Shown: piece after piece, positions 20,244 to 59,711 of the stretch
Layout: every line of letters begins with the position of its first letter
Numbering within the stretch: position 1 is the first letter of the stretch
Assembly: GCA_009886035.1 (NCBI GenBank)
Contig: VFJN01000006.1
Location: 2,263-66,262, forward strand
Source of the DNA: Actinomycetota bacterium
Lineage (GTDB): Bacteria > Actinomycetota > Acidimicrobiia > Acidimicrobiales > VFJN01
Direction of reading: 5' to 3'
Length of the DNA stretch: 64,000 nt
Made by a program: the position numbers and the translations under genes
Notes under the pieces: generated by a model
Told to the model about the DNA's origin: nothing
Database searches by the model: none
What the model saw: only the letters and a program-made list of their open reading frames with translations

Positions 20244-20504
20244 CTAGTTCAAGCGGTTGACGGCGTGCTTGCGCTCGGTCTCGCTCAAGCCACCCCAGAT
20301 CCCGTGCGGCTCGCGGATGCGGATGGCGTAATTCAGACACGCCCGCTGCACTGAGCAGGTGGTGCAGATGCCCTTGGCCCGGTTCTCTCGCTCGAGCTTT
20401 TCTTCCTTGCGCTCGAAATGAGGCGGCGGGAAGAAAATTTCGGCTTGCGGCCCCCGACAGGCGGCTTTCATCTGCCACGTATTCTCAACGCTCTGGATGC
20501 TCAC
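20244..20504 (-). CDS. whiB: WhiB-family (Wbl) Fe-S transcription factor
   Basis: Four Cys (C-Xn-C-X2-C-X5-C) and the GIWGG turn. GAGGGGGA SD upstream of GTG 20504; ATG 20471 is an alternative start. Confidence 0.85.
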   Translation of the reverse strand: MSIQSVENTWQMKAACRGPQAEIFFPPPHFERKEEKLERENRAKGICTTCSVQRACLNYAIRIREPHGIWGGLSETERKHAVNRLN

Positions 20505-24912: not shown

Positions 24913-24986
24913 CGGGTGGTGGCTCAGCTTGGCAGAGCGCTGCGTTCGGGACGCAGAGGTCGGGAGTTCAAATCTCCCCCACCCGA
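24913..24986 (+). tRNA. tRNA-Pro (anticodon CGG)
   Basis: Hand-folded cloverleaf: acceptor CGGGTGG/CCACCCG, D stem GCTC/GAGC, anticodon stem CTGCG/CGCAG with loop TTCGGGA, T arm GGGAG-TTCAAAT-CTCCC. 74 nt; CCA is not encoded. Confidence 0.9.
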
Positions 24987-25079
24987 CTCAAGTATTCTCT
25001 TTTCGGCGGATCGGTGAGTCTTGGCCCGCCTCCGGCCCCCACCGCTTTTTAGGCCTGTTCTCGAGGAGGGTGGTGGATT

Positions 25080-25445
25080 GTGGGGAGGGCCGACGTAACG
25101 TCCAGTGTGATCTTGGTGGTGGCCGCGCTCGTATCAGGACTCTCGTTTCTGTATTACGGATTCAGGGTGTTGTTTCAGGATGCCGCCAAGGGAGAATTCG
25201 AGCGGTACGGCATGCCCGACGTTCGCCAAGTGGTTGGCCTCTTGGAAGTACTCGGCGGGACAGCAGTCATCCTCGGCCTTGCGTTCGCGCCGCTGGGAGC
25301 TTTCGCCGCGGTCGGGCTCACGACGCTGATGGTCCTCGGGCTGATCGTTCGGGTCAGAATCCACGACCCAGTGCGTCTTATGGTCCCCGCCGCGTTACTC
25401 GGCGCGCTGAATGCCGTTCTAGCCGTGCTCTTTCTCTCGGCTTGA
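25080..25445 (+). CDS. DoxX-like small membrane protein (121 aa)
   Basis: Four predicted TM helices. Clearly paralogous to the next gene (EFERYGMPD.../EFEVYGLSE..., ...RIHDPV.../...KVGDPV...). Confidence 0.6.
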   Translation: MGRADVTSSVILVVAALVSGLSFLYYGFRVLFQDAAKGEFERYGMPDVRQVVGLLEVLGGTAVILGLAFAPLGAFAAVGLTTLMVLGLIVRVRIHDPVRLMVPAALLGALNAVLAVLFLSA

Positions 25446-25453
25446 CCCGTCGG

Positions 25454-25831
25454 TCAGCGGCTCTTGCCGTTGAGTACGGCTGAGATCGAGGCGAGGGAGA
25501 AGACCGACAGGGCGGGTAGGTATTGCTTCACGGGGTCCCCGACCTTGATGTGCATACCGATCGCCCCGACCATGAAAGCGGCGAGGCCAAGCGAGGCGGG
25601 TCGGGTGAGCCGTGGCGCGGCATGCCCCACCAGCATCGCCGTGGCCAGGCCCACCTTTGCTGCGCCAACGGCGTGCATCTGCGTCTCGGAGAGCCCGTAC
25701 ACCTCAAACTCTTCCTTCATGTTGGTGGCGTCACCGCCTCGATAGCCGGTGTCCTTATTGAACCGGACGAACCAGACATCCAAAATCCAAAGAGCGGCCG
25801 CCGTCTGGGCGAGTTTGCCAATTACCTGCAT
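25454..25831 (-). CDS. DoxX-like small membrane protein (125 aa), paralogue of 25080-25445
   Basis: Start at the internal ATG (MQVIGKLAQ...). The N-terminal 44 aa of the listed ORF are Arg/Pro-rich and non-coding-like. Confidence 0.6.
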   Translation of the reverse strand: MQVIGKLAQTAAALWILDVWFVRFNKDTGYRGGDATNMKEEFEVYGLSETQMHAVGAAKVGLATAMLVGHAAPRLTRPASLGLAAFMVGAIGMHIKVGDPVKQYLPALSVFSLASISAVLNGKSR

Positions 25832-25955
25832 GGACCAATTCCTTCCACTAGCGATCAATCTCCTAGGATAGGGGTTGCTTGGCCTTTTGCCGCCGGCCGA
25901 GCGATGAGGATCGATTCGGCCGATGACTCGGTAGCGTTGGCGGGAGACACAAGGA

Positions 25956-26786
25956 ATGTCCAAAACGAAGGAGACCTTAATGCGGGACGCATTCGAGTTA
26001 ACCGCGGGCCAGTTTGACCTTGTCTACAACTCGTTTTCACTCACAATCGCCGCCATGGGCGCATCGCTGTTGTTCTTCCTTCTGGTGCGGGATCGGGTGC
26101 GCCCCGAGCACCGCATGGCCGTCACCATCTCGACGGTTGTGGTGGCGATCGCCCTTTACCATTACCTGCGTATCTTCTCCTCGTGGTCGGACGCCTTCGT
26201 CTACGAAGATGGCACCTTTGTCCAGCGAGGTCGGCCGTTCAACGAGGGGTATCGCTACGTTGACTGGCTGTTGACGGTCCCGCTGCTTCTCGCCGAACTG
26301 ATCATCGTCCTGAAGCTGGCCAAGGCCACCACCCGAAGCCTCATCATCAGGCTCGGCATAGCCGCCGTGGCCATGATTGCGCTCGGGTACCCCGGTGAGA
26401 TTGCGGCTCCAGACTCGGCTACCAGGACGCTGTTCGGCGTCCTCGCCACGATCCCGTTCCTCTACATCCTCTATTTGCTGTTCGTGGAACTTGGCCGTTC
26501 GCTTGACCGCCAGAGCCCGGAGGTGAGCAAGATCGTCCACGGTCTCCGCTTCTTGTTGCTGGCGGTGTGGGGTGTCTACCCCCTTGCCTTCATCGCTCCG
26601 TCGGTGATCAACGACCCCGCCGTGGCCGAGGTCGTTCGACAGGTCGGCTATTCGATCGCCGACATCCTCGCCAAACCGCTCTTTGGCCTGTTCATCCTGG
26701 CCATTGCCCTGATCAAGTCAGCGGACGAATCCGCTAGCGAACCCGGTGGTTCTCAGCGCAACTCCGAGGAGCGGGCGCAGGCCTGA
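25956..26786 (+). CDS. type-1 microbial rhodopsin, predicted light-driven outward proton pump (proteorhodopsin/xanthorhodopsin-like, DTE motif)
   Basis: Seven TM helices. Helix C RYVDWLLTVPLLLAE (D103/T107/E114). Helix G YSIADILAKPLFG (D236, Schiff-base K240). WxxYP in helix F and the YHY histidine in helix B. An alternative start at ATG 25980 has a better-spaced AAGGAG. Confidence 0.9.
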   Translation: MSKTKETLMRDAFELTAGQFDLVYNSFSLTIAAMGASLLFFLLVRDRVRPEHRMAVTISTVVVAIALYHYLRIFSSWSDAFVYEDGTFVQRGRPFNEGYRYVDWLLTVPLLLAELIIVLKLAKATTRSLIIRLGIAAVAMIALGYPGEIAAPDSATRTLFGVLATIPFLYILYLLFVELGRSLDRQSPEVSKIVHGLRFLLLAVWGVYPLAFIAPSVINDPAVAEVVRQVGYSIADILAKPLFGLFILAIALIKSADESASEPGGSQRNSEERAQA

Positions 26787-26881
26787 GCCGGGCCGGGGAC
26801 AGCAGCCACCTCCACCGCCGACGGCCTGACCCCGAGGCGGGGGGGTACGGGCATCTCGCGCCGGGGTCAGCCTGAAATGAA

Positions 26882-27988
26882 TCAGCGGAACGAAAATACC
26901 TTGGCCGGGCCGTTGTCGAGCGGAGGCAGGAAGCCGCGTTCACGGAGAATCGGCATCACGCCCTCGCCGAACCAGTAGGCCTCTTCCAGGTGGGGATAGC
27001 CCGACATGATGAACGCATCGAAGCCCAGTTCGTGGTACTCGATGATCCGGTCGGCAACGGTTTCGTAATCTCCCACGAGGGCGGTGCCCACACCGCCGCG
27101 CACCAGGCCCATGCCGGCCCACACGTTGGGGTAGATCTCCAGCCGAGACAGGTCGCCGCCGGTGAGTTCGGCCTGGCGCCGCTGGCCCACCGAAGCGGTG
27201 TTGGCAAAATCAGCCCGTGCCTCGGCGATGGCGGCGGGGGGGATGCCGGCCAGGATGTCGTCGGCGGTCTGCCACGCCGCCGCGCTGGTGGGCCGGGTGA
27301 TGGTGTGGAAGCGAATGCCGAAGCGCAGCGAGCGACCGAAACTGGCCGCTAGCGCTCGCATACGGTCGAGTCGTGGCTTCACCATGGCGGGCGGCTCACC
27401 CCATGTGAGGTAGACGTCTACGTGCTCGGCCGCCACGCGTTCGGCGGCGTCGGAGGCACCGCCGAAGTAAATGGGTGGAACGGGATCTGGAACTTCACGG
27501 GTGGTGGCGTCGGCCACGTCGAAGAACTTGCGATGTTGGGTGAGCGGCGCACCGCTCCAGGCCCCGCGTAGCACCTCAATGAACTCGCCCGTGCGTTCGT
27601 AGCGGGTTTCTTTGTCTTCGGTGATGCCGAAGCGCGCCAGCTCGGCTTGCTCGGCCCCGGTGACGATGTTCACGAGGAGTCGTCCGTCGGACATTCGTTG
27701 GTAACTGGAGGCCATCTGCGCCGCAAGGGTGGGGGTGAGCAGGGCGGGGCGAAAGGCCACGAGAAACTTGAGACGCCGGGTGAGGGGGATGAGCGACGCG
27801 GTGGCCACCCAGGCGTCCTCGCACCCCGTTCCGCACGGCGTGAGCACCGCATCGAAGCCCAACCCGTCGCACGCTTGGGCGACCTGGGCCAAATAGGCGT
27901 GGCTGGGGGCCCGGGCCGGCGAATGGCTGCCGGGAAGGACATCACGCGAGTCGCCCCCGGTGGGGAGGAACCAGTTCATCTCGATCAT
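26882..27988 (-). CDS. LLM-class flavin-dependent oxidoreductase (SsuD-like monooxygenase family)
   Basis: 368 aa. The N-terminus (WFLPTGGD...) and TIM-barrel luciferase-like sequence features fit the family. Confidence 0.7.
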   Translation of the reverse strand: MIEMNWFLPTGGDSRDVLPGSHSPARAPSHAYLAQVAQACDGLGFDAVLTPCGTGCEDAWVATASLIPLTRRLKFLVAFRPALLTPTLAAQMASSYQRMSDGRLLVNIVTGAEQAELARFGITEDKETRYERTGEFIEVLRGAWSGAPLTQHRKFFDVADATTREVPDPVPPIYFGGASDAAERVAAEHVDVYLTWGEPPAMVKPRLDRMRALAASFGRSLRFGIRFHTITRPTSAAAWQTADDILAGIPPAAIAEARADFANTASVGQRRQAELTGGDLSRLEIYPNVWAGMGLVRGGVGTALVGDYETVADRIIEYHELGFDAFIMSGYPHLEEAYWFGEGVMPILRERGFLPPLDNGPAKVFSFR

Positions 27989-31235: not shown

Positions 31236-31745
31236 TTACGAACTAGTTGGCCCTGGATCGGTCTCTTCGATCAACGCGCCCCACGTGCGCAGCAGGTGGA
31301 TGGCATGGTGTTCGGTGACCTTCAGCAGAGCGGACATGGCCCGCAGATCGTCATCGCGGAGCGACAATACCTGGCCGCCGTGATCCCCTCGCTGGGCGAG
31401 GATGGCGCGGAGGAAGCGAAGCATCGGCTCAGCGTCGGGGTCCGCCGGAAGGGCCTGGAGGTTGATCATGATCCGGGCGGGGCCAGGGCTCTCCGGGAGG
31501 GGTGGCGCCCCCAGCAGATCGGCGGTCGACATGCCGTAGAAACTCGCCATGGCATGGAGCTGAGTGAGGTTCAGATTACGGGTGCCCTGCTCGTAGGCCT
31601 GAAGGGTGGCGGCCGTCCAGCGCCCGGAAGACGATTTCTCCACGTCATCAAGGGAAAGGTGGCGGGCATGGCGTATCGCCCGCAACCGCTGCCCGACCTG
31701 CGTCGACAAGTCCGCATCATCAGGGTGGTTGTCGTCGGTCGTCAT
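31236..31745 (-). CDS. XRE-family helix-turn-helix transcriptional regulator
   Basis: HTH_3-like segment LRAIRHARHLSLDDVEKSS...LQAYEQG. Confidence 0.65.
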   Translation of the reverse strand: MTTDDNHPDDADLSTQVGQRLRAIRHARHLSLDDVEKSSSGRWTAATLQAYEQGTRNLNLTQLHAMASFYGMSTADLLGAPPLPESPGPARIMINLQALPADPDAEPMLRFLRAILAQRGDHGGQVLSLRDDDLRAMSALLKVTEHHAIHLLRTWGALIEETDPGPTSS

Positions 31746-33418: not shown

Positions 33419-34276
33419 ATGAGCATCTCCAAGCTAGGGATCGTCGGGTCGGGAATCATGGGGTCGGGAATTGCCGAGGTGGCCGCCAAGGCTGACATCG
33501 AGGTGGTGCTCCGTTCTCGTCAGCGGGCCAGTGCCGATGCCATGGTGGCGGGGCTCGCCAAGTCGCTGGCCAAGCAGGTGGAGCGGGGCAAACTAGACGA
33601 AGCCGTGGCCGCGGAAATCAGTGCCCGCGTGAGCGCCACCGATGACCTCCACGACCTCCAGGACTGCGACCTGGTACTGGAGTCGGTGGTGGAAGATCTC
33701 GCCGTCAAGAAGGACTTGTTCGCCAGCCTCGACAAGATCGTGAAGCCCGGTGCCATCCTGGCCACCAACACCTCCACCCTGCCGGTAGTGGAGTTGGCAA
33801 TGGCCACCGAGCGTCCCGACCTCGTGGTGGGCATCCACTTCTTCAACCCCGCTCCCCTGATGAGCCTCGTGGAGGTCATCGCTCCACTCACCGCCAGTGA
33901 GGCCACCGTGGCCACCGCAAAGGCATTCGCGGCCGGCTGTGGGAAAGACGTCGTGGAGGTGAAGGATCGCGCCGGCTTCATCGTGAACGCGCTGCTTTTC
34001 CCTTATCTGAACAACGCCGTGCGGATGCTGGAGTTGGGTACGGCCAGTCGCGACGACATCGACACCGCCATGAAGGGTGGCTGCAACTTCCCGATGGGTC
34101 CGCTGGCCCTCCTCGACCTCGTCGGCCTCGACACCTCGTTGTCGATTCTCGATGCCCTCTACGATGAGTTTCGCGATCCGAACTATGCGGCTTTGCCGCG
34201 ATTGCGTCGGATGGTGGCGGCGGGCCAACTCGGCCGGAAATCGGGCTCTGGCTTCTACGATTACGCCAAGAAGTAG
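33419..34276 (+). CDS. 3-hydroxybutyryl-CoA / 3-hydroxyacyl-CoA dehydrogenase
   Basis: GSGIMGSGIA NAD-binding motif and the 3HCDH C-terminal domain. Confidence 0.88.
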   Translation: MSISKLGIVGSGIMGSGIAEVAAKADIEVVLRSRQRASADAMVAGLAKSLAKQVERGKLDEAVAAEISARVSATDDLHDLQDCDLVLESVVEDLAVKKDLFASLDKIVKPGAILATNTSTLPVVELAMATERPDLVVGIHFFNPAPLMSLVEVIAPLTASEATVATAKAFAAGCGKDVVEVKDRAGFIVNALLFPYLNNAVRMLELGTASRDDIDTAMKGGCNFPMGPLALLDLVGLDTSLSILDALYDEFRDPNYAALPRLRRMVAAGQLGRKSGSGFYDYAKK

Positions 34277-34290
34277 GAGGACACCACCCC

Positions 34291-35064
34291 ATGACTGCAT
34301 CTGAACTGTTCGACATCGCTGGCAAACGAGCGGTGGTCACCGGTGGTGGCAGTGGCATCGGCACGATGATCGCCTCGGGGTTGGTAGAGGCAGGGGTGAG
34401 CGTGATCATCGCCTCTCGCAAAGAGGATTCCCTCAAAGAGGTCACCGAGGCGCTCGCCGAGCGGGGCGATTGCTCCTACATCGTGGCCGACCTCTCGACC
34501 GAGGGGGGCTGCGAGGGCCTCGGCGCGGCGGTGGCGGAGCGCTGGGACTCGCTCGACATCCTCGTGAACAATGCGGGCGCCAACTGGGGGGCTCCGCTGG
34601 CCGAACAGAACAGCGCCTCCTGGCACCGAGTGCTCGATGTAAACGTGGAAGGCGTATTCCACACCACGAAGTTTCTGCTGCCCCTCCTGCAGGCCGCCGG
34701 CCGTGACGACGATCCGGCCCGGATCATCAACATCGGGTCGATCGACGGCATCCAGGTGCCTGGCTTCGAGACCTACGCCTACTCCGCCTCCAAGGCGGCG
34801 GTGCACCAACTCACCCGGCACTTGGCCAAACATCTGGCCCCCCAGATCACCGTGAACGCCATCGCGCCGGGGCCGTTTCAGTCGCGGATGATGAAGGCCA
34901 CCCTGGCCGCCGCCGGCGATGGCATGGCGAAGATGGTGCCGTTGCGACGGATCGGGCAACCACAGGACATGGCCGGTCCGGCCATTTTCCTCTGCTCGAA
35001 AGCCGGGGCGTATCTCACCGGCGCCATCATCCCGGTAGACGGCGGCATCGCCACCACCAAGTAG
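34291..35064 (+). CDS. SDR-family oxidoreductase
   Basis: TGGGSGIG cofactor motif and YSASK catalytic motif. Confidence 0.85.
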   Translation: MTASELFDIAGKRAVVTGGGSGIGTMIASGLVEAGVSVIIASRKEDSLKEVTEALAERGDCSYIVADLSTEGGCEGLGAAVAERWDSLDILVNNAGANWGAPLAEQNSASWHRVLDVNVEGVFHTTKFLLPLLQAAGRDDDPARIINIGSIDGIQVPGFETYAYSASKAAVHQLTRHLAKHLAPQITVNAIAPGPFQSRMMKATLAAAGDGMAKMVPLRRIGQPQDMAGPAIFLCSKAGAYLTGAIIPVDGGIATTK

Positions 35065-35818: not shown

Positions 35819-37783
35819 ATGACGCCCACCCACCTGGAGCAACCGGATCGTCCCTGGATGATTCGCACGTACTCGGGTCACTCCACCGCCAAGGCCAGCA
35901 ATGAGTTGTATCGCTCCAACCTGGCCAAGGGGCAGACGGGTCTGTCGATCGCATTCGACCTCCCCACCCAGACCGGTTACGACCCCGACCATGTCCTGGC
36001 CAAGGGCGAGGTGGGCAAGGTGGGCGTTCCGGTCGTGCACTTGGGCCACATGGGCGAACTGCTCGACGGCATCCCTCAGGGCGAGATGAACACCTCCATG
36101 ACCATCAACGCGCCGGCGGCGTGGCTGCTGGGGCTGTACGTAGCCAACGCCGAGAATCACGGCGTGGCCAGTGAGGACCTTCGCGGCACGACACAGAACG
36201 ACATCGTCAAGGAATACCTCTCCCGGGGCACCTACATTTTTCCGCCGCTGCCGTCGCGTCGGCTGATCGTGGACATGATCGCGTTCTGTGCCGAGCGGGT
36301 GCCGCGATGGAACCCGATGAACGTGTGCAGCTATCACCTGCAGGAGGCGGGAGCGACTCCAGTGCAGGAACTGGCCTACTCGTTAGCCACTGCCATCGGG
36401 GTGCTCGACGCCGTGCGGGAATCGGGTCAGGTTGAGCCAGAGGCGTTCCCGCAGGTGTTTGCCACCATCAGTTTCTTCGTGAACAGCGGCATCCGCTTCG
36501 TGGAGGAGACGGCCAAGATGCGGGCGTTCACCCAGCTCTGGGATCGCATCGGTCTCGAGCGCTACGGCGTCACCGATCCCAAGGCCCGACGGTTCCGCTA
36601 TGGGGTGCAGGTGAACAGCCTCGGCCTCACTGAGGCCCAACCCGAGAATAACGTGCAGCGCATCGTCCTCGAAATGTTGGGAGTGACCTTGTCGCGCGGG
36701 GCGCGGGCGCGTTCGGTGCAGTTGCCGGCCTGGAACGAAGCCCTCGGTCTGCCCCGGCCGTGGGACCAGCAGTGGGCGTTGCGTATGCAGCAGGTCCTCG
36801 CCTACGAGACCGACCTCCTCGAGTATCCGGATCTGTTCGAGGGGTCGGTGGTGGTCGAGGCTCTCACCGCGGAATTAGCCGAAGCCGCCTGGGCCGAGTT
36901 GCAGGAGGTACTCGATCTGGGGGGCGCGTTCGGAGCGATCGAACAACTCAAGGGGCGGCTGGTCACCAGCCATGCCGAGCGCTTGCGCAAGATCGAGTCG
37001 GGTGATCTCACCGTGGTGGGCGTCAACCGCTTCACCGAAGCCATGCCGTCTCCGCTGGCCGGGGAGGGGTCCATTCTCAGGGTCGATCCCGACGTTGAGG
37101 CCCTCACGGTGGCGGGAGTGGTGCAGTGGCGGGCCCAACGAGACCACGATGCGGTGCAGCGGGCGCTCGACGAACTGCGGCGGGTGGCGATGTCGACGGA
37201 GAATGTGATGCCCGCCACCATTGATCTCGCTCACGTTGGGGGCACGACCGGGGAGTGGGCGGGCGTCCTGCGCGAGGTATTCGGAGAGTACCGAGCCCCC
37301 ACCGGAGTGGCCGCCGCCGCCGGGGCGGCGGGAGGCAGCGCCGGTCTTCGGGCCCTGGCCGAACGGGTGAAGGCCCTGCCGGGCGGACCACCCCGGCTTC
37401 TCGTGGCCAAGCCGGGTCTGGATGGACACAGCAACGGTGCCGAACAGATCGCCGTGGCGGCCCGTGACGCCGGGCTCGAGGTGATCTATCAGGGGATTCG
37501 GCTCACCCCCGAGCAGATCGCGTCGGTAGCGCTTGACGAGGATGTGGATGTGATCGGCCTCTCCATCCTCTCGGGCAGTCATCTCGACTTGGTGCCCGAG
37601 GTGGTGCGTCTCTGTCGCCAACGGGGGGTGACGGCGCCCGTGGTGGCCGGCGGGATCATCCCGGAGGAGGATCGGCCGCGCCTGCTGGCGGCGGATCTCG
37701 CGGCGGTCTACACCCCGAAGGATTTCAACCTCACCACCATCATGGGTGAGATCGTGGATCTCGCGGTGGCTCACCGGGGCTGA
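35819..37783 (+). CDS. B12-dependent acyl-CoA mutase, single-chain, ethylmalonyl-CoA mutase (MeaA/Ecm)-like
   Basis: RPWMIRTYSGHSTA...GQTGLSIAFDLPTQTGYD substrate domain fused to a C-terminal B12 domain with the DGHSNG (DxHxxG) motif. 654 aa. ccr is in the same window. Confidence 0.8.
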   Translation: MTPTHLEQPDRPWMIRTYSGHSTAKASNELYRSNLAKGQTGLSIAFDLPTQTGYDPDHVLAKGEVGKVGVPVVHLGHMGELLDGIPQGEMNTSMTINAPAAWLLGLYVANAENHGVASEDLRGTTQNDIVKEYLSRGTYIFPPLPSRRLIVDMIAFCAERVPRWNPMNVCSYHLQEAGATPVQELAYSLATAIGVLDAVRESGQVEPEAFPQVFATISFFVNSGIRFVEETAKMRAFTQLWDRIGLERYGVTDPKARRFRYGVQVNSLGLTEAQPENNVQRIVLEMLGVTLSRGARARSVQLPAWNEALGLPRPWDQQWALRMQQVLAYETDLLEYPDLFEGSVVVEALTAELAEAAWAELQEVLDLGGAFGAIEQLKGRLVTSHAERLRKIESGDLTVVGVNRFTEAMPSPLAGEGSILRVDPDVEALTVAGVVQWRAQRDHDAVQRALDELRRVAMSTENVMPATIDLAHVGGTTGEWAGVLREVFGEYRAPTGVAAAAGAAGGSAGLRALAERVKALPGGPPRLLVAKPGLDGHSNGAEQIAVAARDAGLEVIYQGIRLTPEQIASVALDEDVDVIGLSILSGSHLDLVPEVVRLCRQRGVTAPVVAGGIIPEEDRPRLLAADLAAVYTPKDFNLTTIMGEIVDLAVAHRG

Positions 37784-40264: not shown

Positions 40265-41821
40265 TCACAGGGGAACGTTGCCGTGCTTGCGTTTAGGAAG
40301 TTCTTCGCGCTTGGAGCGCAGCAGTTCCAGGCCGGCGATGAGCTTGATGCGAGTGTGGGCGGGGTCGATCACGTCGTCGACAAACCCACGTTCCGCCGCC
40401 ACGTACGGGTTGCAGAACCGTTCGGTGTACTCCTCCACGAGTTCGGCCCGCTTGGCCACGGGATCCTCGGCGGCGGCGAGTTCCTTGCGGTACACAATCT
40501 CCACGGCGCCCTGCGGACCCATCACGGCCAACTCGGCACTCGGCCAGGCGAAGGCGAGGTCGGCGCCGATGGACTTCGAGTTCATCACCACATAGGCGCC
40601 CCCATAGGCCTTGCGGGTGATGACCTGGATGCGCGGCACGGTGGCTTCGCAGTACGCATAGAGGAGTTTGGCGCCGTGACGAATGATGCCGCCGTACTCC
40701 TGGTCGACCCCGGGGAGGAATCCGGGCACATCCACGAAGGTGATGAGGGGGATGTTGAAGGCATCGCAGGTGCGCACGAAGCGGGCCGCTTTCTCAGCGC
40801 TGTTGATGTCCAGTACGCCGGCTAGCACCATCGGCTGGTTGCCCACGATGCCTACGGGGTGGCCGTCGAGACGGGCGAAGCCACAGGTGATCGAACCCGC
40901 CCAGTGGGGGAAATACTCCACATAGTCGGCATCGTCCATCACGGCGCCGATCACGGATTTCATGTCGTAGGGGATGTTGGGACTCGCCGGCATCAGGTCG
41001 CGGAGTTCGGGAGTCTCCCGGTGCGGGTCGTCGGAGGGTGTGATCGCCGGCGGCACTTCGAGGTTGTTGGACGGGAGGAAACTGAGGAGGTAGCGCACCT
41101 CGTCGAGGACGATCTGTTCGGTGTCGCCGACGAAGGTGGCGACCCCCGATTTCGAGGCGTGTGACATGGCACCCCCGAGTTCCTCGAGAGTCACTTCTTC
41201 GCCGGTCACCGTCTTCACCACCTCCGGGCCGGTGATGAACATGTGCGAGTGCTCTTTCACCATGAAGATGAAGTCGGTCATGGCCGGGGAGTACACCGCA
41301 CCGCCGGCGCAGGGACCGAGGATCACACTGATCTGAGGGATCACTCCCGACGCCTGCACGTTGCGGTGGAAGATGCCGCCGTAACTCGCCAGGGAGACGG
41401 GACCTTCCTGGATGCGGGCCCCGGCGCCGTCGTTCAATCCGATGAGGGGGGCACCCACCTTGATGGCGAGGTCCATGACTTTGTGGATCTTTTCAGCGAA
41501 CACTTCACCTAGCGCGCCACCGAAGACGGTGAAGTCTTGGCTGAAGAGAAACACTTTGCGGCCGTGGATCGTGCCCCAACCAGTGACCACGCCGTCGGTG
41601 TAGGGACGCTCCAGCAGACCGCTGTCGTGAGCGCGGTGCCGGGCCAGCATGTCGAGTTCATGGAACGAGCCGGGGTCGAGCAGGAACTCGATCCGCTCTC
41701 GGGCGAGCATCTTGCCCTTGCTGTGCTGGCGGTCGATGGAGCGATCGGATCCGGCGTGCAACGCCTGCTCCTTGCGCTCGGCCAAATCGGAAAGACGCTC
41801 GCTCATCGTGTGCTCGGTCAC
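40265..41821 (-). CDS. acyl-CoA carboxylase carboxyltransferase (beta) subunit, propionyl-CoA carboxylase-type
   Basis: 518 aa with typical AccD5/PccB sequence throughout (GGARIQEG, two crotonase-like halves). Confidence 0.9.
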   Translation of the reverse strand: MTEHTMSERLSDLAERKEQALHAGSDRSIDRQHSKGKMLARERIEFLLDPGSFHELDMLARHRAHDSGLLERPYTDGVVTGWGTIHGRKVFLFSQDFTVFGGALGEVFAEKIHKVMDLAIKVGAPLIGLNDGAGARIQEGPVSLASYGGIFHRNVQASGVIPQISVILGPCAGGAVYSPAMTDFIFMVKEHSHMFITGPEVVKTVTGEEVTLEELGGAMSHASKSGVATFVGDTEQIVLDEVRYLLSFLPSNNLEVPPAITPSDDPHRETPELRDLMPASPNIPYDMKSVIGAVMDDADYVEYFPHWAGSITCGFARLDGHPVGIVGNQPMVLAGVLDINSAEKAARFVRTCDAFNIPLITFVDVPGFLPGVDQEYGGIIRHGAKLLYAYCEATVPRIQVITRKAYGGAYVVMNSKSIGADLAFAWPSAELAVMGPQGAVEIVYRKELAAAEDPVAKRAELVEEYTERFCNPYVAAERGFVDDVIDPAHTRIKLIAGLELLRSKREELPKRKHGNVPL

Positions 41822-44995: not shown

Positions 44996-46768
44996 TCAGG
45001 GTGCGATGGGATCGAGGGCCCCGGCGGTGTAGCGCACCCTCGGGTTCCACAGCAGGAACCCCTCTACGCCAAGGGCCGCGGCGCTGTCGATCTGGGCCCG
45101 CACTTCGGCATCGTTGTACGTCACGCCGTAGAGAGTGAAGTCCTGCAGCCACGGCAGCAAGCGCACGCCGGTGCCCTCGGTTATCCGCTGGAAGTCGGCG
45201 AGGGACGCCGCCACGATCTCGCCGGGTTGCTTGATTGGGTTGGCCACCCGATACATGCCCGCCCCCCAGTGGGATGGGTAGAGCATGGGGGCGAGGTAGT
45301 CCACTGCGGTGGCCATCTTCGGCACGTCCTGGGCAATGCTGTCGCCGGAGGCCGCCGCGATGCCGAACACCGAGGCTCCCTGGTAGGCACCCTGCTCACG
45401 CAGCGACCCATGGGCTTCGGCGAGGAAACTGGCCACCGAATCCGAACTGGGTCCAACGAGGCCGGGCACCACCATGCTGACAGGGTCGCCCTCCGGTCGG
45501 CGGATGTAGTCCCAGAGGATGTCTTTCACACCGAGCGACACCGCTTCGAGGGCGATATCGAGGTTGTAGTTACGAACATTGACGTGGGCGTAGTTGGTGA
45601 AGCCGCCGTACGCGTCCAGCATCTCGCCCTCGGGGGTTTGGAGGACCTCTTCCTGGCGGTCTTCAGACCAGGCGGCCTCGGCATAGACCGGATCGCGGAA
45701 CGCCACGAGGCGACCTACGACGCGCACGTCCTTGGCGGCGAGGGTTCGCACCACTTCGGCCAGGTCATAGTCGCCGGAGACAGCCCCGATGCGTATGGCC
45801 TCGGGGTTCTTCGAGCGGTAGCCGACCATCCCGGACTCGTCTTTGATGTCGAGCTCTACGGTGTCGATGAGACCGTCGTCGATGAGGGCGAACACGCCAG
45901 CCCGCAGCTCGTCGTTGGCCCACGCCGCCGCGCTCATGTGCACGCCGCGCGAGGCCTCCGGGTAGGTCACTGGTACCACCGTGGCGGCGGCGGTCTGGTT
46001 GCCCGCCTTATCGGTGGCCTCGAAGCGCAGGACCCCGACGGGGGGGCGATCGAAGGTCACCGTGAAGCGGCCGTTTTTGGTTGCCAGCGGTTTACCGGCG
46101 AAGGTGAGCGAAGAACCTTCTTCTACGGTGCCCTGCACGGTCACCTGCTTGTCGATGGGCACCGGTTTGAGGCTGGGCGGCAGGTCGATGACCGGGGCGA
46201 TGCTGTCTACCGAGTAACGCCAACTGAAGTTCGAGTTGCCGAGGAGGAACCGTCCGACGGACACCTTGATCTCGTGGTCACCCTCGTCGAGGGCATGGGC
46301 GACGAGTTCCGAAGTAACGAGTTGTTGCGGGCTGATCCGTACGGTCGCACTGGCATCGTCGGCTGTCGTGAGATCTGGCTTCACGTCGACACCATCGAGG
46401 GTGAGGGTGCCGCGGAAGAGCTCGTCGGGCGAGGCGAAGGCCAGGGCGATGTCTAGGGCGGCGGCGTTGGCGGGGGTGAGAGCCTGGCCGTTTTCCACCC
46501 CGGTGACGGTGACGTCGATGCGGGTGGAACTCCAGAACGTGTGCCCGATCCAGGCCGCCACTGCGACCGCCGCCAGTCCCAATGCCCACACGAACAGATC
46601 GACCGGGCGGCGCGATCGTTGGAGGCGACGGCGCTGGGGGCGCCGGTCCGGCAGTGGCCCCGGCGTGAAGTCGAGCGAGGGGCGGCGCGCCGGTTTGCGC
46701 AGGCCGCGAGGGGCCTGACGGCGGCGGGGCTGGTGGGCCCCGGGGATGTCGCGAAGAGAAGAGACCAT
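44996..46768 (-). CDS. membrane-anchored putative glycoside hydrolase (DUF4015-like TIM barrel) with N-terminal Ig-like region
   Basis: Start at ATG 46768 (MVSSLRD...). Basic tail, one TM helix, then RGVHMSAAAW...VELDIKDESGMVGY and a C-terminal barrel. The rest of the 1046-aa ORF is antisense to the next gene. Confidence 0.6.
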   Translation of the reverse strand: MVSSLRDIPGAHQPRRRQAPRGLRKPARRPSLDFTPGPLPDRRPQRRRLQRSRRPVDLFVWALGLAAVAVAAWIGHTFWSSTRIDVTVTGVENGQALTPANAAALDIALAFASPDELFRGTLTLDGVDVKPDLTTADDASATVRISPQQLVTSELVAHALDEGDHEIKVSVGRFLLGNSNFSWRYSVDSIAPVIDLPPSLKPVPIDKQVTVQGTVEEGSSLTFAGKPLATKNGRFTVTFDRPPVGVLRFEATDKAGNQTAAATVVPVTYPEASRGVHMSAAAWANDELRAGVFALIDDGLIDTVELDIKDESGMVGYRSKNPEAIRIGAVSGDYDLAEVVRTLAAKDVRVVGRLVAFRDPVYAEAAWSEDRQEEVLQTPEGEMLDAYGGFTNYAHVNVRNYNLDIALEAVSLGVKDILWDYIRRPEGDPVSMVVPGLVGPSSDSVASFLAEAHGSLREQGAYQGASVFGIAAASGDSIAQDVPKMATAVDYLAPMLYPSHWGAGMYRVANPIKQPGEIVAASLADFQRITEGTGVRLLPWLQDFTLYGVTYNDAEVRAQIDSAAALGVEGFLLWNPRVRYTAGALDPIAP

Positions 46769-46949
46769 CAGAAGGTGGCCACACAGGGCGGGCCGGGGAA
46801 GATTCTGCCCTCTCCACTCCCCTCGGGGCCATCGCGACGACGGCCATGAGGCCAATCGAGGCGGTGCTCGGGGGCGAGCGGATCGGGTGGGGCGGTCCAT
46901 TCGGCCCCGCCACCGGCGGCCGCCGCGCGCGCTGTCCGATCGTTCCCGG

Positions 46950-46975
46950 GCCAACTTGACCCGCCGGTCAAGTTG
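46950..46975. promoter_or_regulatory. 26-bp near-perfect palindrome (candidate operator)
   Basis: CCAACTTGACC-CGCC-GGTCAAGTTGG: 11-bp perfect arms, in the 258-bp divergent intergenic region, 52 nt upstream of the ACAD ATG. Confidence 0.4.
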
Positions 46976-47026
46976 GGTTTCTACTGGACACATACGCCCA
47001 CCACCCACGCTGTTCCAGGGGGACCG

Positions 47027-48355
47027 ATGACCGACACCACAGAGCGCCCGATCCACGCCAACGAGGCCGTTGAGGCCGTAAACGCATGGTTGACAGAGAA
47101 CTGGGACCCCGACCTCACCGTCGCCGAATGGTGGAACCGCCTCGGCCTGTCGGGCTGGGCGGCCCCCGGGCTTCCGGCGAACGCTTACGGCAAGGGCCTC
47201 AACCGCAACGACAGCGTGGCGGTGCAAAACGCCATCGTGGAATTCGGCGCCCTCGGAGCCCCGGGTGGGCTCGGGCTGCTCCTCGCCGCTCCGACCATCG
47301 CCAGTCATGGCACCCAGGAGCAGATCGACCTGTACGTGCGAGACATCGTCACCGGTCAGAAAGCATGGTGTCAGCTCTTTAGCGAGCCCGGGGCCGGCTC
47401 CGACCTCGCTGGTCTGCAGAGCCGGGCGATTCGGGACGGCGACGAGTGGATCGTGACCGGTCAGAAGGTGTGGACCTCCGGTGGCCAGGTATCCGACCTG
47501 GGCATGCTCATCGCTCGCACCGATCCTGATGTGCCGAAGCATCAGGGCATCACGTACTTCGCTATCGACATGCACCAGAAGGGGATCGACATTCGGCCTC
47601 TCGTGGAGATGACCGGCCACGCCCTGTTCAACGAGGTCTTCATGGAAGAGGCGGTGGTGCCCGAGGGCGCCGTCGTGGGTGGTCTGAACAACGGGTGGGC
47701 GGTAGCCAACACCACTTTGATGAACGAGCGCGCCGGGCTGGGTTCCGGCGGCGGACACGCCGCCGGAGGTGCGGCCACCCCCGGGACGGTCGTGAACGAT
47801 CTTGTGCGCCGCGCCGGCGACTTCGTGCCCACCGGGGGCGGTCGCCGGAAGCGCGGCGGCGGCGGTGGCGGGATGTTTGGTGGGTCCTACAACCTCTTGG
47901 TAGATCTGGCGAAGGGCAACGGCAAGATCAACGATCCCAGTATTCGGCAGGATCTGATGAAACTGCACACCCTGAACGAACTGGGCCGCATGCACAGCAT
48001 GCGAGCCAAGGCGGCGAAGGCCATCGGGCAGGACGTGCCGGGGCTTCCCAACATTTCCAAGCTCTCGATGAGCGAGATCGTGCGCCAACAGCGCGATCTC
48101 GGCCTGCGGATCCTCGGCCCCCTCGGCATGCTGCACGGCTACACGCCCGACCAGCAGGCAGCACTGAACGAAGCCACCGGCAACCCTTTCACCGGAATGA
48201 TTACCGGGATTGCCCTTTTCGCCCAGGCCCCGCCCATCTACGGCGGCACCGACCAGGTGCAGAAGAACATCATCGGCGAGCGCGTGCTCGGCCTCCCCAA
48301 GGAGCCCAACAACGACAAGACGGCGGCTTTCCGGGATCTTCCCAAGAACGCCTGA
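47027..48355 (+). CDS. acyl-CoA dehydrogenase (paralogue of 43709-44932)
   Basis: ACAD domains with C-terminal GGTDQVQKNIIGERVLGLP. Start taken at ATG 47027 (GGGGGA upstream) rather than TTG 46973. Confidence 0.85.
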   Translation: MTDTTERPIHANEAVEAVNAWLTENWDPDLTVAEWWNRLGLSGWAAPGLPANAYGKGLNRNDSVAVQNAIVEFGALGAPGGLGLLLAAPTIASHGTQEQIDLYVRDIVTGQKAWCQLFSEPGAGSDLAGLQSRAIRDGDEWIVTGQKVWTSGGQVSDLGMLIARTDPDVPKHQGITYFAIDMHQKGIDIRPLVEMTGHALFNEVFMEEAVVPEGAVVGGLNNGWAVANTTLMNERAGLGSGGGHAAGGAATPGTVVNDLVRRAGDFVPTGGGRRKRGGGGGGMFGGSYNLLVDLAKGNGKINDPSIRQDLMKLHTLNELGRMHSMRAKAAKAIGQDVPGLPNISKLSMSEIVRQQRDLGLRILGPLGMLHGYTPDQQAALNEATGNPFTGMITGIALFAQAPPIYGGTDQVQKNIIGERVLGLPKEPNNDKTAAFRDLPKNA

Positions 48356-50639: not shown

Positions 50640-51050
50640 CTATTCCTGCACGAGTTCGATGAGGGTGCCGAAACTGCCCTTGGGATGCACAAACGCCACC
50701 GTGGTGCCCCTGCTTCCCGGGCGGGGCACTGTGTCGATGGCGGTGGCCCCGGCGGCGATCATGGCGGCGAGAGCCGCCGCGCAATCGTCGACCCGATAGC
50801 CAACATGGTGGAGGCCTTCGCCCCGCTTCTCGATCGATTTCGCGATAGGCGAGTCGGGGCGGGTGGCGGCGGTGAGTTGAATGAAGGAGTCGGCCACTTT
50901 GATGAGGGCTTCCTCCACCCCGTCGCTCTCTACGATCTCGCGATGGTGGACCTCGGCCCCGAAGGCCTGCTGGTAATAGGCAATGGCCGCCTCAAGGTCG
51001 CGCACGGCGATGGCGATGTGGTCGATTTCGGTGAGCAGTCCTGAGGTCAT
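50640..51050 (-). CDS. methylmalonyl-/ethylmalonyl-CoA epimerase (VOC family)
   Basis: 136 aa with IDHIAIAV and HHVGY metal-ligand motifs. Its start overlaps the ccr stop by 1 nt. Confidence 0.8.
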   Translation of the reverse strand: MTSGLLTEIDHIAIAVRDLEAAIAYYQQAFGAEVHHREIVESDGVEEALIKVADSFIQLTAATRPDSPIAKSIEKRGEGLHHVGYRVDDCAAALAAMIAAGATAIDTVPRPGSRGTTVAFVHPKGSFGTLIELVQE

Positions 51051-52399
51051 CAGAGTTCTCCGCCGGCGTGGCGCTGGAACAAGGTGATCTTGTCTTCACC
51101 GATCTGCTCCCGCTTTTCCGGGTCCTGGATGCCGAGACCGGCCGTCGGCGCGAGGCAACGCACGGCCAGTTTTCCTTCGGCCTCGTTTCGATGGACGGCG
51201 CGGGCGGCCTCGCCGACCTCGGGGAGGTCGTAGGCGGCCGACATCACCGGCTGGATCTTGCCGGCCATGATGAGGCGGTTCATGTCCCATGCTTCTTGAT
51301 AGTTGGCGAAGTGGGAGGAGACGATCCGCTTCAGTTTCATCCAGAGGTGGCGGTTGTCGTATTCGAGCATGAACCCGGAGGTGGCGGCACAGGTCACGAC
51401 GGTGCCCCCCCGCTTGGCGATAAATACCGAGGCCCCGAAGGTGGAGCGGCCAGGATGCTCAAACACGATGCTCGGGTCCTCACCGATGAGGCTGCGCACC
51501 TTCTTGCCGAGTCGCCGCCACTCGCCCTCGTCTTGGGTGTGTTCGTCCTTCCAGAACTGGTAGCCCTCGGCAGCCCGGTCGATGGTGGCCTCGCAGCCCA
51601 TCGCCTCGAGCAACTTGGCCCGCTCGGGGCTCGACACCACCCCCACGGGGGTACCGCCACCGTTGAGGATGAGTTGAATGGCGTAGGCACCGATGCCGCC
51701 GGTGGCGCCCCACACGAATACGGAGTCGCCCTGACGCATCTGGGCGGCATGGCGGCCCACCAACATGCGGTAGCTGGTGGAGGCACAGAGGCCGTTCACG
51801 GCACTCTCCTCCCAGGTGAGGTGCTCGGGCTTGGGCATGATCTGGTTGGCCTTCACCACGGCGAGATCGGCGAGTCCGCCGAAGTTCGACTCGAAGCCCC
51901 AGATGCGCTGGTTGCTGGCGAGCATGGAATCGTCGTGGGCGGAGGGGTCTTGGTCATCGAGGTAGTTGCAGTGCACCACCACCCGGTCGCCGGGCTTCCA
52001 ATTCCGCACCGCCGATCCCACCCGGAGCACCACGCCCGAGGCGTCGGAGCCCACGACGTGATGATCAAGGGCGTGGCGTTTGCCCCACGCCGACTCCTTG
52101 CCGAGTCGGTCGAGGAAACCGAACGTGGACATGGGCTCAAAGATCGAGGTCCACACGGTGTTGAAGTTGATCGAACTGGCCATGACCCCGAGGTACACCT
52201 CGTCGGGGGCCAGTTCGGGGGTAGCCACCTCGCCCACATGGAGCGATTGGCGCGGGTCCTTGTCGGCGGACGCCACTCCCTCCCACATTGTCTGCTCACT
52301 GCGCAGCACGTGGGCGCCGCGGTAGCTGTCGGGGATCGGGATGGCGGCGATGTCCTCTCCGGACGCGCCGCCTTCGATGGCTTCGAGGAAGTTCTGCAT
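51050..52399 (-). CDS. ccr: crotonyl-CoA carboxylase/reductase
   Basis: 449-aa MDR-family enzyme with the Ccr-type N-terminal extension, IWGFESNFGGLA and GATGGIG motifs. Confidence 0.8.
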   Translation of the reverse strand: MQNFLEAIEGGASGEDIAAIPIPDSYRGAHVLRSEQTMWEGVASADKDPRQSLHVGEVATPELAPDEVYLGVMASSINFNTVWTSIFEPMSTFGFLDRLGKESAWGKRHALDHHVVGSDASGVVLRVGSAVRNWKPGDRVVVHCNYLDDQDPSAHDDSMLASNQRIWGFESNFGGLADLAVVKANQIMPKPEHLTWEESAVNGLCASTSYRMLVGRHAAQMRQGDSVFVWGATGGIGAYAIQLILNGGGTPVGVVSSPERAKLLEAMGCEATIDRAAEGYQFWKDEHTQDEGEWRRLGKKVRSLIGEDPSIVFEHPGRSTFGASVFIAKRGGTVVTCAATSGFMLEYDNRHLWMKLKRIVSSHFANYQEAWDMNRLIMAGKIQPVMSAAYDLPEVGEAARAVHRNEAEGKLAVRCLAPTAGLGIQDPEKREQIGEDKITLFQRHAGGEL

Positions 52400-59457: not shown

Positions 59458-59711
59458 GTTCGATTCCCCCGGGGAGCGGTGGATCAGCGATCAGGTCCAG
59501 AGCTCTGCGGTGGGACGACGATGGCCCGCTGCAGCTGTGGTCACCTTATCGTCAGGTGGGGGCTTCGGGCCAGCCGTTTCAACTCCGGGGGTGGATCCGG
59601 GCCGAGCCGAGGGGTGGGGACGGGGCCGAGACGACGTCGTCTGGCCGTCGCGGTCGGGTGATCGGTACGCTGACGTGTTCGTATCTCGATATCTCTATGG
59701 GGGGAAGTTGT

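Follow-up and report, generated by a model that had tools for sequence, protein, structure and literature searches.

A predicted light-driven proton pump of the xanthorhodopsin family, with a glycine at the carotenoid antenna position, in a Microthrixaceae-like actinobacterium

Introduction

The window analyzed here, by which we mean the whole 64-kb stretch (64,000 nucleotides) of contig VFJN01000006.1 from assembly GCA_009886035.1, carries on its plus strand at 25956-26786 an open reading frame (ORF) for an apparent rhodopsin of 276 amino acids. The locus raises the question of what such a protein would do for its host, and whether it would work with retinal alone or with a carotenoid antenna as well. 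A preliminary description, made from the DNA letters alone, had proposed a light-driven outward H+ pump with a green-tuning leucine, and a glycine that opens a site for a keto-carotenoid antenna.

We conclude, with a probability of about 0.9, that the product of this gene binds retinal and pumps protons outward when driven by light, as a xanthorhodopsin-family protein in a Microthrixaceae-like member of the Acidimicrobiia, a reading that is built on sequence comparison and a structure model. The rhodopsin itself is uncharacterised and ordinary, with the usual motif set of a family that is large, already has a name and has been characterised in part.

Family Membership and Predicted Structure

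The ORF is present in the window exactly as first described, and its translation contains the motifs RYVDWLLTVPLLLAE, YSIADILAKPLFG, YHY, WGVYP and TLFGVLATIPFLYILYLLF as they had been quoted, together with the AAA codon of the retinal-binding lysine.

The protein is a type-1 rhodopsin of the xanthorhodopsin family, and the match is far beyond chance. The Pfam profile PF01036 (Bac_rhodopsin), a search proposed in the preliminary description, matched at E=6.7e-40. The score was 137.4 bits, compared with a cut-off of 24.6, and profile positions 6-221 of 224 were covered by residues 26-251; no NCBIfam model matched the protein. When all PDB chains were searched, 164 distinct rhodopsin sequences were matched. 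The best match was Gloeobacter rhodopsin (GR; 6nwd, E=8e-78), followed by psXR (9wfa, E=1.2e-76), thermophilic rhodopsin (TR; 5azd, E=1.7e-69), 9hfk (E=2.7e-69), which the Foldseek listing identifies as the Rhodoluna lacicola actinorhodopsin (RlActR), and, both at E=1.5e-68, Kin4B8 (7ytb) and Salinibacter xanthorhodopsin (XR; 3ddl). Chloride pumps (about 1e-35), proteorhodopsins (about 1e-28), sodium pumps (about 1e-24) and bacteriorhodopsin (BR; about 1e-15) came far behind.

An AlphaFold2 model built on 50 homologues (mean pLDDT 91.1, pTM 0.86) has seven helices, the number that had been counted by hydrophobicity. In the numbering of the 268-residue form of the protein (see Gene Start and Expression Signals), they span residues 9-39, 42-72, 90-111, 115-141, 147-173, 180-209 and 213-253, and strands at 6-8, 74-76 and 79-81 make up a sheet of the N-terminus and the B-C loop. 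A three-stranded sheet of an N-terminal strand and a B-C loop hairpin has been described for XR and Kin4B8 (10.1101/2022.08.24.505090). In a Foldseek comparison of the model with the PDB, the top structures were psXR, TR, GR, Kin4B8, XR and RlActR, and ranks 1-12 all belonged to the XR family. The query-normalised TM-score was 0.85-0.88 (1.3-2.3 A root-mean-square deviation) to psXR, TR, GR, Kin4B8 and XR, and 0.82 (3.3 A) to RlActR.

Catalytic Residues and the Predicted Pump

Residues were assigned in a MAFFT L-INS-i alignment with BR, green proteorhodopsin (GPR), XR, GR, Kin4B8, TR, psXR and 9hfk, and are numbered in the 276-residue form unless stated otherwise. The XR reference is 100% identical to 3ddl over 273 residues, the BR reference matches the 249-residue PDB chain end to end, and the GPR reference equals 8cqc except for one construct residue; those of GR, Kin4B8, TR, psXR and 9hfk were taken from the printed alignments of the PDB search. 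Conservation was counted over the 120 closest homologues, which are 65-100% identical to the query.

Every catalytic residue is in place and conserved (Table 1). Asp103, Thr107 and Glu114 form the DTE motif at the BR positions that the preliminary description had given them, and the same holds for the second counter-ion Asp236, the Schiff-base Lys240, the His69 that matches the proteorhodopsin histidine, and Leu111 at the proteorhodopsin tuning site. A displaced Asp103 or Lys240 had been named as grounds for giving up the reading, and the alignment puts both at the expected BR positions.

Pumps with the DTE motif bind all-trans retinal at the Schiff-base lysine and pump protons outward; XR, TR and RlActR are outward H+ pumps. 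By homology with XR, GR, proteorhodopsin and Kin4B8, all-trans retinal would be bound to Lys240 of the window protein as a protonated Schiff base. Photo-isomerisation would then send the proton to Asp103, which has His69 as its partner and Arg100 and Asp236 at its flanks, and the Schiff base would be reprotonated from Glu114 on the cytoplasmic side. The proton-motive force gained in this way would supplement heterotrophic metabolism. Leu111 predicts green absorption; for GR and ActR-13023, absorption maxima of about 540-565 nm have been reported. Sequence, profile, structure model and phylogeny all point to the outward H+ pump of the DTE, Leu and xanthorhodopsin type that had been suggested at the outset.

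Relatives and Phylogenetic Position

Proteins of this kind are abundant. A word-indexed homologue search, in which 8,000 candidates were scored, returned at least 7,043 homologues at E<=1e-20, and the best 120, where named, are bacteriorhodopsin-like proteins from metagenome-assembled genomes (MAGs) of Acidimicrobiales, Ilumatobacter, Ilumatobacteraceae and Microthrixaceae. Among the GTDB species genomes, the nearest (93% identity) is isolate TH-08apr19-254, a MAG from a lake that is filed under the name Candidatus Microthrix parvicella. More distant are IMCC26207, a cultured strain (74%), a Microthrixaceae MAG from Lake Mendota (73%), Pengzhenrongella (72%) and many Ilumatobacteraceae (64-74%). 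The rhodopsin gene of IMCC26207 has an in-frame TAG at a conserved glutamine codon (TEW*FDLVYN; positions 1416-1418 of locus L028, contig LCZK01000003.1), so that the gene is decayed, was misread in sequencing or begins at a later codon.

A neighbour-joining tree was made from 86 sequences, i.e. proteins of the related loci and solved references, with 100 bootstraps. The window protein groups with that of the Microthrix MAG (bootstrap 100) and then with the Mendota Microthrixaceae sequence (98), and both nest in a clade of 44 Acidimicrobiia tips (83). The actinorhodopsin clade, which contains RlActR (91), excludes the window protein, and the group of XR, GR, TR and Kin4B8 is also separate, with a bootstrap of 50 and deeper nodes that the tree does not resolve. 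The preliminary description had guessed at the actinorhodopsin or acidirhodopsin branches, and the guess was right in direction, since the protein lies in an Acidimicrobiia clade apart from the actinorhodopsins. Mizuno et al. (PMC4337565) introduced the name acidirhodopsins for a clade of Acidimicrobiales rhodopsins that stands apart from the actinorhodopsins, and acidirhodopsins are reported to account for about 5% of the opsin coverage in Lake Mendota (10.1101/2022.08.01.502354). We infer that this name applies to the clade of the window protein, with MAG sequences of Ilumatobacteraceae (acIV) serving as proxies for the type sequences acAcidi and MedAcidi-G1.

Two close relatives, L007 and L087, are used repeatedly below; the L087 rhodopsin is 98.5% identical to that of the window. 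In a comparison with window positions 16096-36753, the identity of the L007 MAG contig changes at the rhodopsin gene, being about 88% on its left side, 90-93% in the rhodopsin itself and 98-99% on its right side, and L007 has a 122-bp insertion in the intergenic region upstream of the gene. Either recombination has occurred with a breakpoint at the rhodopsin, or the MAG contig is chimeric.

Glycine 161 and the Carotenoid Question

The preliminary description had aligned helix E by hand and placed Gly161 at BR Trp138, which is XR Gly156. Members of the XR family can be aligned gap-free in helix E from G161 through TIPF.YILY, the sole indel being in the preceding D-E loop, and therefore the assignment is unambiguous. 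Pairwise HMMER alignments to GR and XR give the same register as MAFFT, so that the hand alignment holds. Proteorhodopsin was dropped as a reference for helix E because its placement by MAFFT differed between runs. At this position 113 of the 120 closest homologues have Gly and seven have Ala.

Gly161 would leave a fenestration in helix E beside the retinal ring, where the ring of a carotenoid could dock and pass the energy of blue light to retinal, as in XR, GR, Kin4B8 and psXR. About 55% of environmental XRs carry Gly at this position (10.1101/2022.08.24.505090), and the mutations G178W in GR (PMC9151804) and G153F in Kin4B8 (10.1101/2022.08.24.505090) abolish carotenoid binding. The glycine is best regarded as necessary but not sufficient for antenna binding; it permits an antenna and does not show one.

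The main alternative, and one that is nearly as likely as an antenna, is that the protein is a proton pump that uses retinal only. It would have inherited the glycine from its family and would bind no carotenoid, either because the cell has no suitable xanthophyll or because another side chain or the lipid environment prevents binding. Several observations weigh in this direction and against an antenna. No blh or crt gene and no ketolase or hydroxylase gene was found in the 64-kb window by Pfam or tblastn. The glycine is the default state of the clade and so carries little information on this organism. Even among Gly-bearing XRs binding is selective (PMC12779958, PMC8113403, 10.1101/2022.08.24.505090). 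For example, psXR did not bind canthaxanthin, so that Gly is no guarantee of binding (PMC12779958), ActR-13023 bound a native actinobacterial carotenoid and gained nothing from salinixanthin (PMC8113403), and before 2022 it proved impossible to show that other Gly-bearing XRs use the carotenoids tested (10.1101/2022.08.24.505090). Finally, three residues near the retinal ring, Ala164, Val204 and Phe212, depart from the family consensus and could alter colour or antenna coupling unpredictably.

However, Gly161 and the serine at the floor of the fenestration are kept under purifying selection across the clade, and the window is a small part of the genome in which carotenoid genes could lie. TR binds some carotenoid. 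Likewise, each of the Gly-bearing proteins XR, GR, Kin4B8, psXR and ActR-13023 has been reported to bind one (10.1101/2022.08.24.505090, PMC9151804, PMC12779958, PMC8113403).

If an antenna is bound, its nature is a further question. The preliminary description had spoken of a keto-carotenoid antenna site; the glycine at the antenna position stands, and the word keto is dated. XR and GR bind 4-keto carotenoids, and Kin4B8 and psXR bind 3-hydroxy xanthophylls (10.1101/2022.08.24.505090, PMC9151804, PMC12779958). Chazan et al. proposed that a polar floor, such as Ser208/Tyr209 of Kin4B8, may favour hydroxylated carotenoids and a hydrophobic floor, as in XR, keto-carotenoids (10.1101/2022.08.24.505090). 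The floor of the window protein is Ser216-Val217, and Ser216 matches Ser208 of Kin4B8 and not Met211 of XR or Met233 of GR. Since this polar residue is shared with Kin4B8 and kept in 113 of the 120 homologues, a 3-hydroxylated xanthophyll would be a somewhat more likely ligand than a 4-keto carotenoid. The argument from Ser216 is weak because psXR, which has a less polar floor, still binds lutein (PMC12779958). In the alignment, Ile213 (Ala205 in Kin4B8, Leu224 in psXR) is bulkier than the Kin4B8 residue. The site should be called a carotenoid antenna site, with no ligand specified.

Retinal Supply and Light Regulation

The window gives no evidence for a supply of retinal or of an antenna pigment, although it is a small part of the genome. 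When it was searched by tblastn with blh, lycopene cyclase, CarH/LitR and SnoaL seeds from the related loci, only weak B12-binding matches in an acyl-CoA mutase gene and an antisense artefact were obtained.

The related loci present a different picture. ORFs within 7 kb of the rhodopsin were clustered and their representatives searched with Pfam. A blh gene (PF15461) lies within about 4 kb of the rhodopsin in 13 related loci (for example, L024 8026-9066, plus strand) and a lycopene cyclase gene (PF05834) within about 4 kb in six (for example, L030 6814-8061, plus strand); relatives with linked blh or lycopene cyclase include Ilumatobacter, mycobacteria, Pseudonocardia, Planktophila and Trueperaceae. 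Most relatives of the Acidimicrobiia clade, 30 loci in all, carry a divergently oriented gene about 130 bp upstream of the rhodopsin, and its product combines HTH_17, B12-binding_2 and B12-binding domains (examples in Table 1). This is the domain architecture of the B12-dependent light regulators CarH/LitR and suggests that rhodopsin expression in the clade is regulated by light. A literature search for LitR linked to rhodopsins found nothing relevant. The linkage of blh, crtY and CarH/LitR-like genes to the rhodopsin in relatives shows that this rhodopsin family works with retinal, and it makes regulation by light probable in many lineages. In the lineage of the window (the window, L007 and L087/88), a pair of DoxX genes stands in the place of the regulator. 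The frequent pairing of clade rhodopsins with a B12-dependent light regulator that has no counterpart in the window lineage is a mildly useful lead.

One locus outside the class deserves mention. Pengzhenrongella phosphoraccumulans (L009, NZ_CP144210.1, 996372-997124), a cultured member of the Micrococcales, has a rhodopsin of the Acidimicrobiia clade that is 72% identical to the window protein and is preceded by a CarH/LitR-like gene. The finding points to transfer of both genes from one actinobacterial class to another, and the strain provides the clade with a model that can be cultured.

These patterns bear on a second alternative, namely that the organism makes no retinal of its own and the opsin either has a mainly light-independent role, such as phospholipid scrambling, or runs on scavenged retinal. 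We regard this as improbable. No blh was found within the 64 kb of the window, as opposed to the 13 loci above, where it lies within about 2 kb of the rhodopsin, or in the 10-kb flanks of L007 and L087, and a preprint reports retinal-independent scramblase activity of an actinorhodopsin (ActR) and genomes with an opsin but no blh (PMC12393363). However, all of the residues for retinal binding and proton transfer are intact and invariant in the clade, which would be unexpected if photochemistry were dispensable. In addition, blh is often unlinked to rhodopsin in bacteria, most of the genome lies outside the window, and one protein could both scramble lipids and pump protons.

Nothing specific speaks for a sensor, an inward pump or a pump for another ion, beyond the fact that pump function is deduced from homology alone, and to the extent that sequence can decide, these functions are ruled out: the motif is DTE, in which Glu is the donor, and not NDQ (Na+), NTQ (Cl-) or an inward-pump motif, no transducer gene adjoins the rhodopsin, Cl- and Na+ pumps are far more distant (E=1e-35 to 1e-24, against 1e-78 for the best match), and GR, Kin4B8 and psXR are described as outward H+ pumps (10.1101/2022.08.24.505090, PMC9151804, PMC12779958).

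Lineage-Specific Substitutions

Under the preferred reading of an outward proton pump, some substitutions peculiar to the lineage may bear on colour. Each position was compared with 118 other close homologues at a consensus threshold of at least 85%, and six positions were off consensus: I116, A164, L174, H195, V204 and F212. Three of these, Ala164, Val204 and Phe212, stand in for the Ser, Thr and Tyr, respectively, of the family; each change is isosteric and removes a hydroxyl group from the vicinity of the retinal ring. The states at 164/204/212 are S/V/Y in L007, A/V/Y in L087 and A/V/F in the window, a series that indicates stepwise acquisition. Two of the corresponding GR residues, S181 and S221, have been termed 'colour tuning serines' (PMC9151804), and the series may represent spectral tuning. 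It is a ready-made natural test set for spectral tuning, from Ser/Thr/Tyr to Ala/Val/Phe, and as such a mildly useful lead.

Among close strains, the nonsynonymous divergence (pN) of the rhodopsin is 0.017-0.036, as opposed to 0.002-0.004 for the adjacent monooxygenase, and its pN/pS ratio (pS, synonymous divergence) of 0.3-0.4 indicates purifying selection. The faster amino acid change of the rhodopsin could reflect either spectral micro-tuning or mild relaxation.

One could combine these patterns into a more elaborate scenario for this freshwater Microthrixaceae lineage. The pump would have been retuned by three stepwise hydroxyl losses in strains that are otherwise 98-99% identical, and CarH/LitR and the linked blh/crtY would have been lost, leaving a rhodopsin that is constitutive, spectrally shifted and dependent on scavenged retinal, with a hydroxy-xanthophyll antenna from outside. 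We think it unlikely that all of this is correct.

Gene Start and Expression Signals

The preliminary description had noted two possible starts, ATG 25956 and ATG 25980, the latter with a better-spaced AAGGAG. Both are at these coordinates, and ATG 25980, which gives 268 residues, is the likelier start because the AAGGAG spacing, the N-termini of homologues and the public gene calls agree. AAGGA lies directly next to ATG 25956, leaving no spacer. Of the 120 closest homologues, 119 start in the MAFFT alignment at the column of query residue 9, which is the Met of ATG 25980; the identical protein in public assemblies is called from the same codon as 268 amino acids; and reconstructed N-termini at related loci start 5-8 residues ahead of the GQF.LVYN motif, like the 268-residue form. 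In both closest genomes, L087 and L007, ATG 25956 is replaced by GTG, and AAGGAG and ATG 25980 are invariant. In the 268-residue numbering, the key residues are H61, D95, T99, L103, E106, G153, D228 and K232.

A scan of 25400-27000 for sigma-70 promoters and intrinsic terminators found none, and the 102-nt region 3' of the rhodopsin stop codon folds no better than shuffled sequences (z=-1.27).

Host and Gene Neighbourhood

The preliminary description had assumed an actinobacterial host, and several features of the window agree. The GC content is 66.3%, with the third-position pattern (GC3) of a high-GC genome, a WhiB gene (20244-20504) and a gene for a BldD-like regulator (31236-31745) are both typical of Actinomycetota, and the nearest genomes are those of Microthrixaceae, a family within the Acidimicrobiales.

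Pfam was run on essentially all plausible genes of the window. The features discussed in this report are collected in Table 1. Farther out are genes for ArsA-like ATPases, a STAS protein and a response regulator, and asd/ask. Rfam found only the tRNA-Pro in the whole window, hence no riboswitch near the rhodopsin.

Table 1. The rhodopsin gene, its key codons and other features. Coordinates are those of the window unless a locus is named; residues follow the 276-residue form, and fractions are counts among close homologues.
Feature	Position	Strand	Remarks
Rhodopsin gene, preferred reading, 268 aa + stop	25980..26786	+	ORF, PF01036, PDB matches, public gene calls
Shine-Dalgarno-like AAGGAG	25968..25973	+	Read directly; 6-nt spacer to ATG 25980
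His69, CAT	26160..26162	+	GPR H75, XR H62, GR H87; partner of counter-ion Asp; His in 120/120
Arg100			BR R82 (alignment); invariant in 120/120
Asp103, GAC	26262..26264	+	BR D85, XR D96, GR D121; predicted Schiff-base counter-ion/proton acceptor; 120/120
Thr107, ACG	26274..26276	+	BR T89, XR T100; middle of DTE motif; 120/120
Leu111	26286..26288	+	GPR L105, BR L93; green/blue tuning position; Leu in 120/120
Glu114, GAA	26295..26297	+	BR D96, XR E107, GR E132; predicted cytoplasmic proton donor; 120/120
Gly161, GGC	26436..26438	+	BR W138, XR G156, GR G178, Kin4B8 G153, psXR G172; fenestration position
Ala164, GCC	26445..26447	+	BR S141, GR S181; family Ser 116/118
Val204	26565-26567	+	GR S221; family Thr 113/118
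Phe212	26589-26591	+	BR W189; family Tyr 114/118
Ser216, TCG	26601..26603	+	Kin4B8 S208 (XR M211, GR M233); fenestration floor; Ser in 113/120
Asp236, GAC	26661..26663	+	BR D212; predicted second counter-ion; 120/120
Lys240, AAA	26673..26675	+	BR K216, XR K240, GR K257; predicted retinal Schiff-base lysine; 120/120
tRNA-Pro (CGG)	24913-24987	+	1 kb upstream of rhodopsin, between response regulator and DoxX pair
DoxX_2 membrane protein	25080-25445	+	Pfam
DoxX_2 membrane protein	25454-25831	-	Pfam; back to back with 25080-25445 gene
Luciferase-like monooxygenase	26882-27988	-	Convergent with rhodopsin
Ethylmalonyl-CoA-like gene set	33419-35064, 35819-37783, 40265-41821, 50640-52399, 59556-60893		Pfam
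CarH/LitR-like genes of related loci (examples)	L020 2217-3005; L089 786-1571; L090 9131-9904	-	MerR-type HTH_17 domain set

We considered whether the DoxX_2 pair and the monooxygenase might be linked in function to the rhodopsin, and regard them only as neighbours. Recurrence of DoxX_2 genes is limited to the same lineage and three other loci (L024, L045 and L046), where they lie at variable distances of 1.3-4.5 kb from the rhodopsin, and the monooxygenase gene is convergent. Recent horizontal transfer beside the tRNA-Pro gene was also considered and has left no sign, the GC3 of the rhodopsin (0.80) matching its surroundings and the arrangement being common to L007 and L087; no integrase or repeat suggesting an island was seen near the tRNA.

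The acyl-CoA genes of the window encode a crotonyl-CoA reductase-like alcohol dehydrogenase, an epimerase, a B12 mutase, a carboxyltransferase, a thiolase, a hydroxyacyl-CoA dehydrogenase, a short-chain dehydrogenase/reductase and acyl-CoA dehydrogenases. The set resembles the ethylmalonyl-CoA route, which Mizuno et al. described for marine Acidimicrobiales (PMC4337565). The picture is that of a Microthrixaceae-like actinobacterium with acyl-CoA metabolism of the ethylmalonyl-CoA type that probably supplements heterotrophy by light. A minus-strand ORF of 1046 amino acids (44996-48136) overlaps the plus-strand acyl-CoA dehydrogenase gene at 46973-48355. The sole domain match in this ORF (DUF4015) is confined to the C-terminal third (about 45029-45946), and the real gene is probably much shorter than the ORF.

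Comparison with Known Rhodopsins

The closest known systems are the acidirhodopsins, which likewise have Acidimicrobiia hosts, the DTE motif and Leu for green tuning (PMC4337565). The window protein is 65-80% identical to many proteins from MAGs of Ilumatobacteraceae, Microthrixaceae and Acidimicrobiales in this acidirhodopsin-like clade, although it lies in a Microthrixaceae subclade and not among the Ilumatobacter (acIV) sequences. It differs from the clade in having Ala164, Val204 and Phe212 in place of Ser, Thr and Tyr, and its gene lacks both the divergent CarH/LitR-like regulator of 30 loci and the nearby blh/crtY of some.

Actinorhodopsins also come from actinobacterial hosts and have DTE, Leu and the Gly of the fenestration, and RlActR is 55% identical to the window protein. 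One ActR has been reconstituted with a native carotenoid (PMC8113403). However, they form a separate clade with 9hfk (bootstrap 91), and the B-C loop of RlActR is shorter.

GR shares 53% identity and the same DTE/His/Lys set, its G178 corresponds to G161, and its TM-score to the model is 0.88 when query-normalised and 0.95 when target-normalised. It differs in binding 4-keto carotenoids, in having Met233 at the floor where the window protein has Ser216, and in having Thr179, Ser181 and Ser221 in place of Val162, Ala164 and Val204.

Kin4B8 (7ytb, 8i2z) and psXR (9wfa) are XRs with a fenestration, and the carotenoids they bind are 3-hydroxy xanthophylls (lutein, zeaxanthin). G161, V162 and S216 of the window protein have the same residues as counterparts in Kin4B8 (G153, V154 and S208), whereas Kin4B8 Tyr209 is Val217. 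The query-normalised TM-scores are 0.87-0.88, yet the identities are only 48-49% and the two proteins come from other phyla (Bdellovibrionota and Cyanobacteria).

XR, the founding member of the family, has the same catalytic set (H62, D96, T100, E107, D236 and K240), and its Gly156 corresponds to G161. It is 47% identical to the window protein, its floor is hydrophobic (Met208, Met211) and it binds the keto-carotenoid salinixanthin; its D-E loop is three residues longer and its F-G loop five residues longer.

In conclusion, the window adds one more predicted pump of the XR family, fenestrated like most of its relatives, to a clade whose abundance in lakes and oceans was known before. It opens no new question, and it supports the present view that freshwater Actinomycetota as a rule have antenna-capable rhodopsins.

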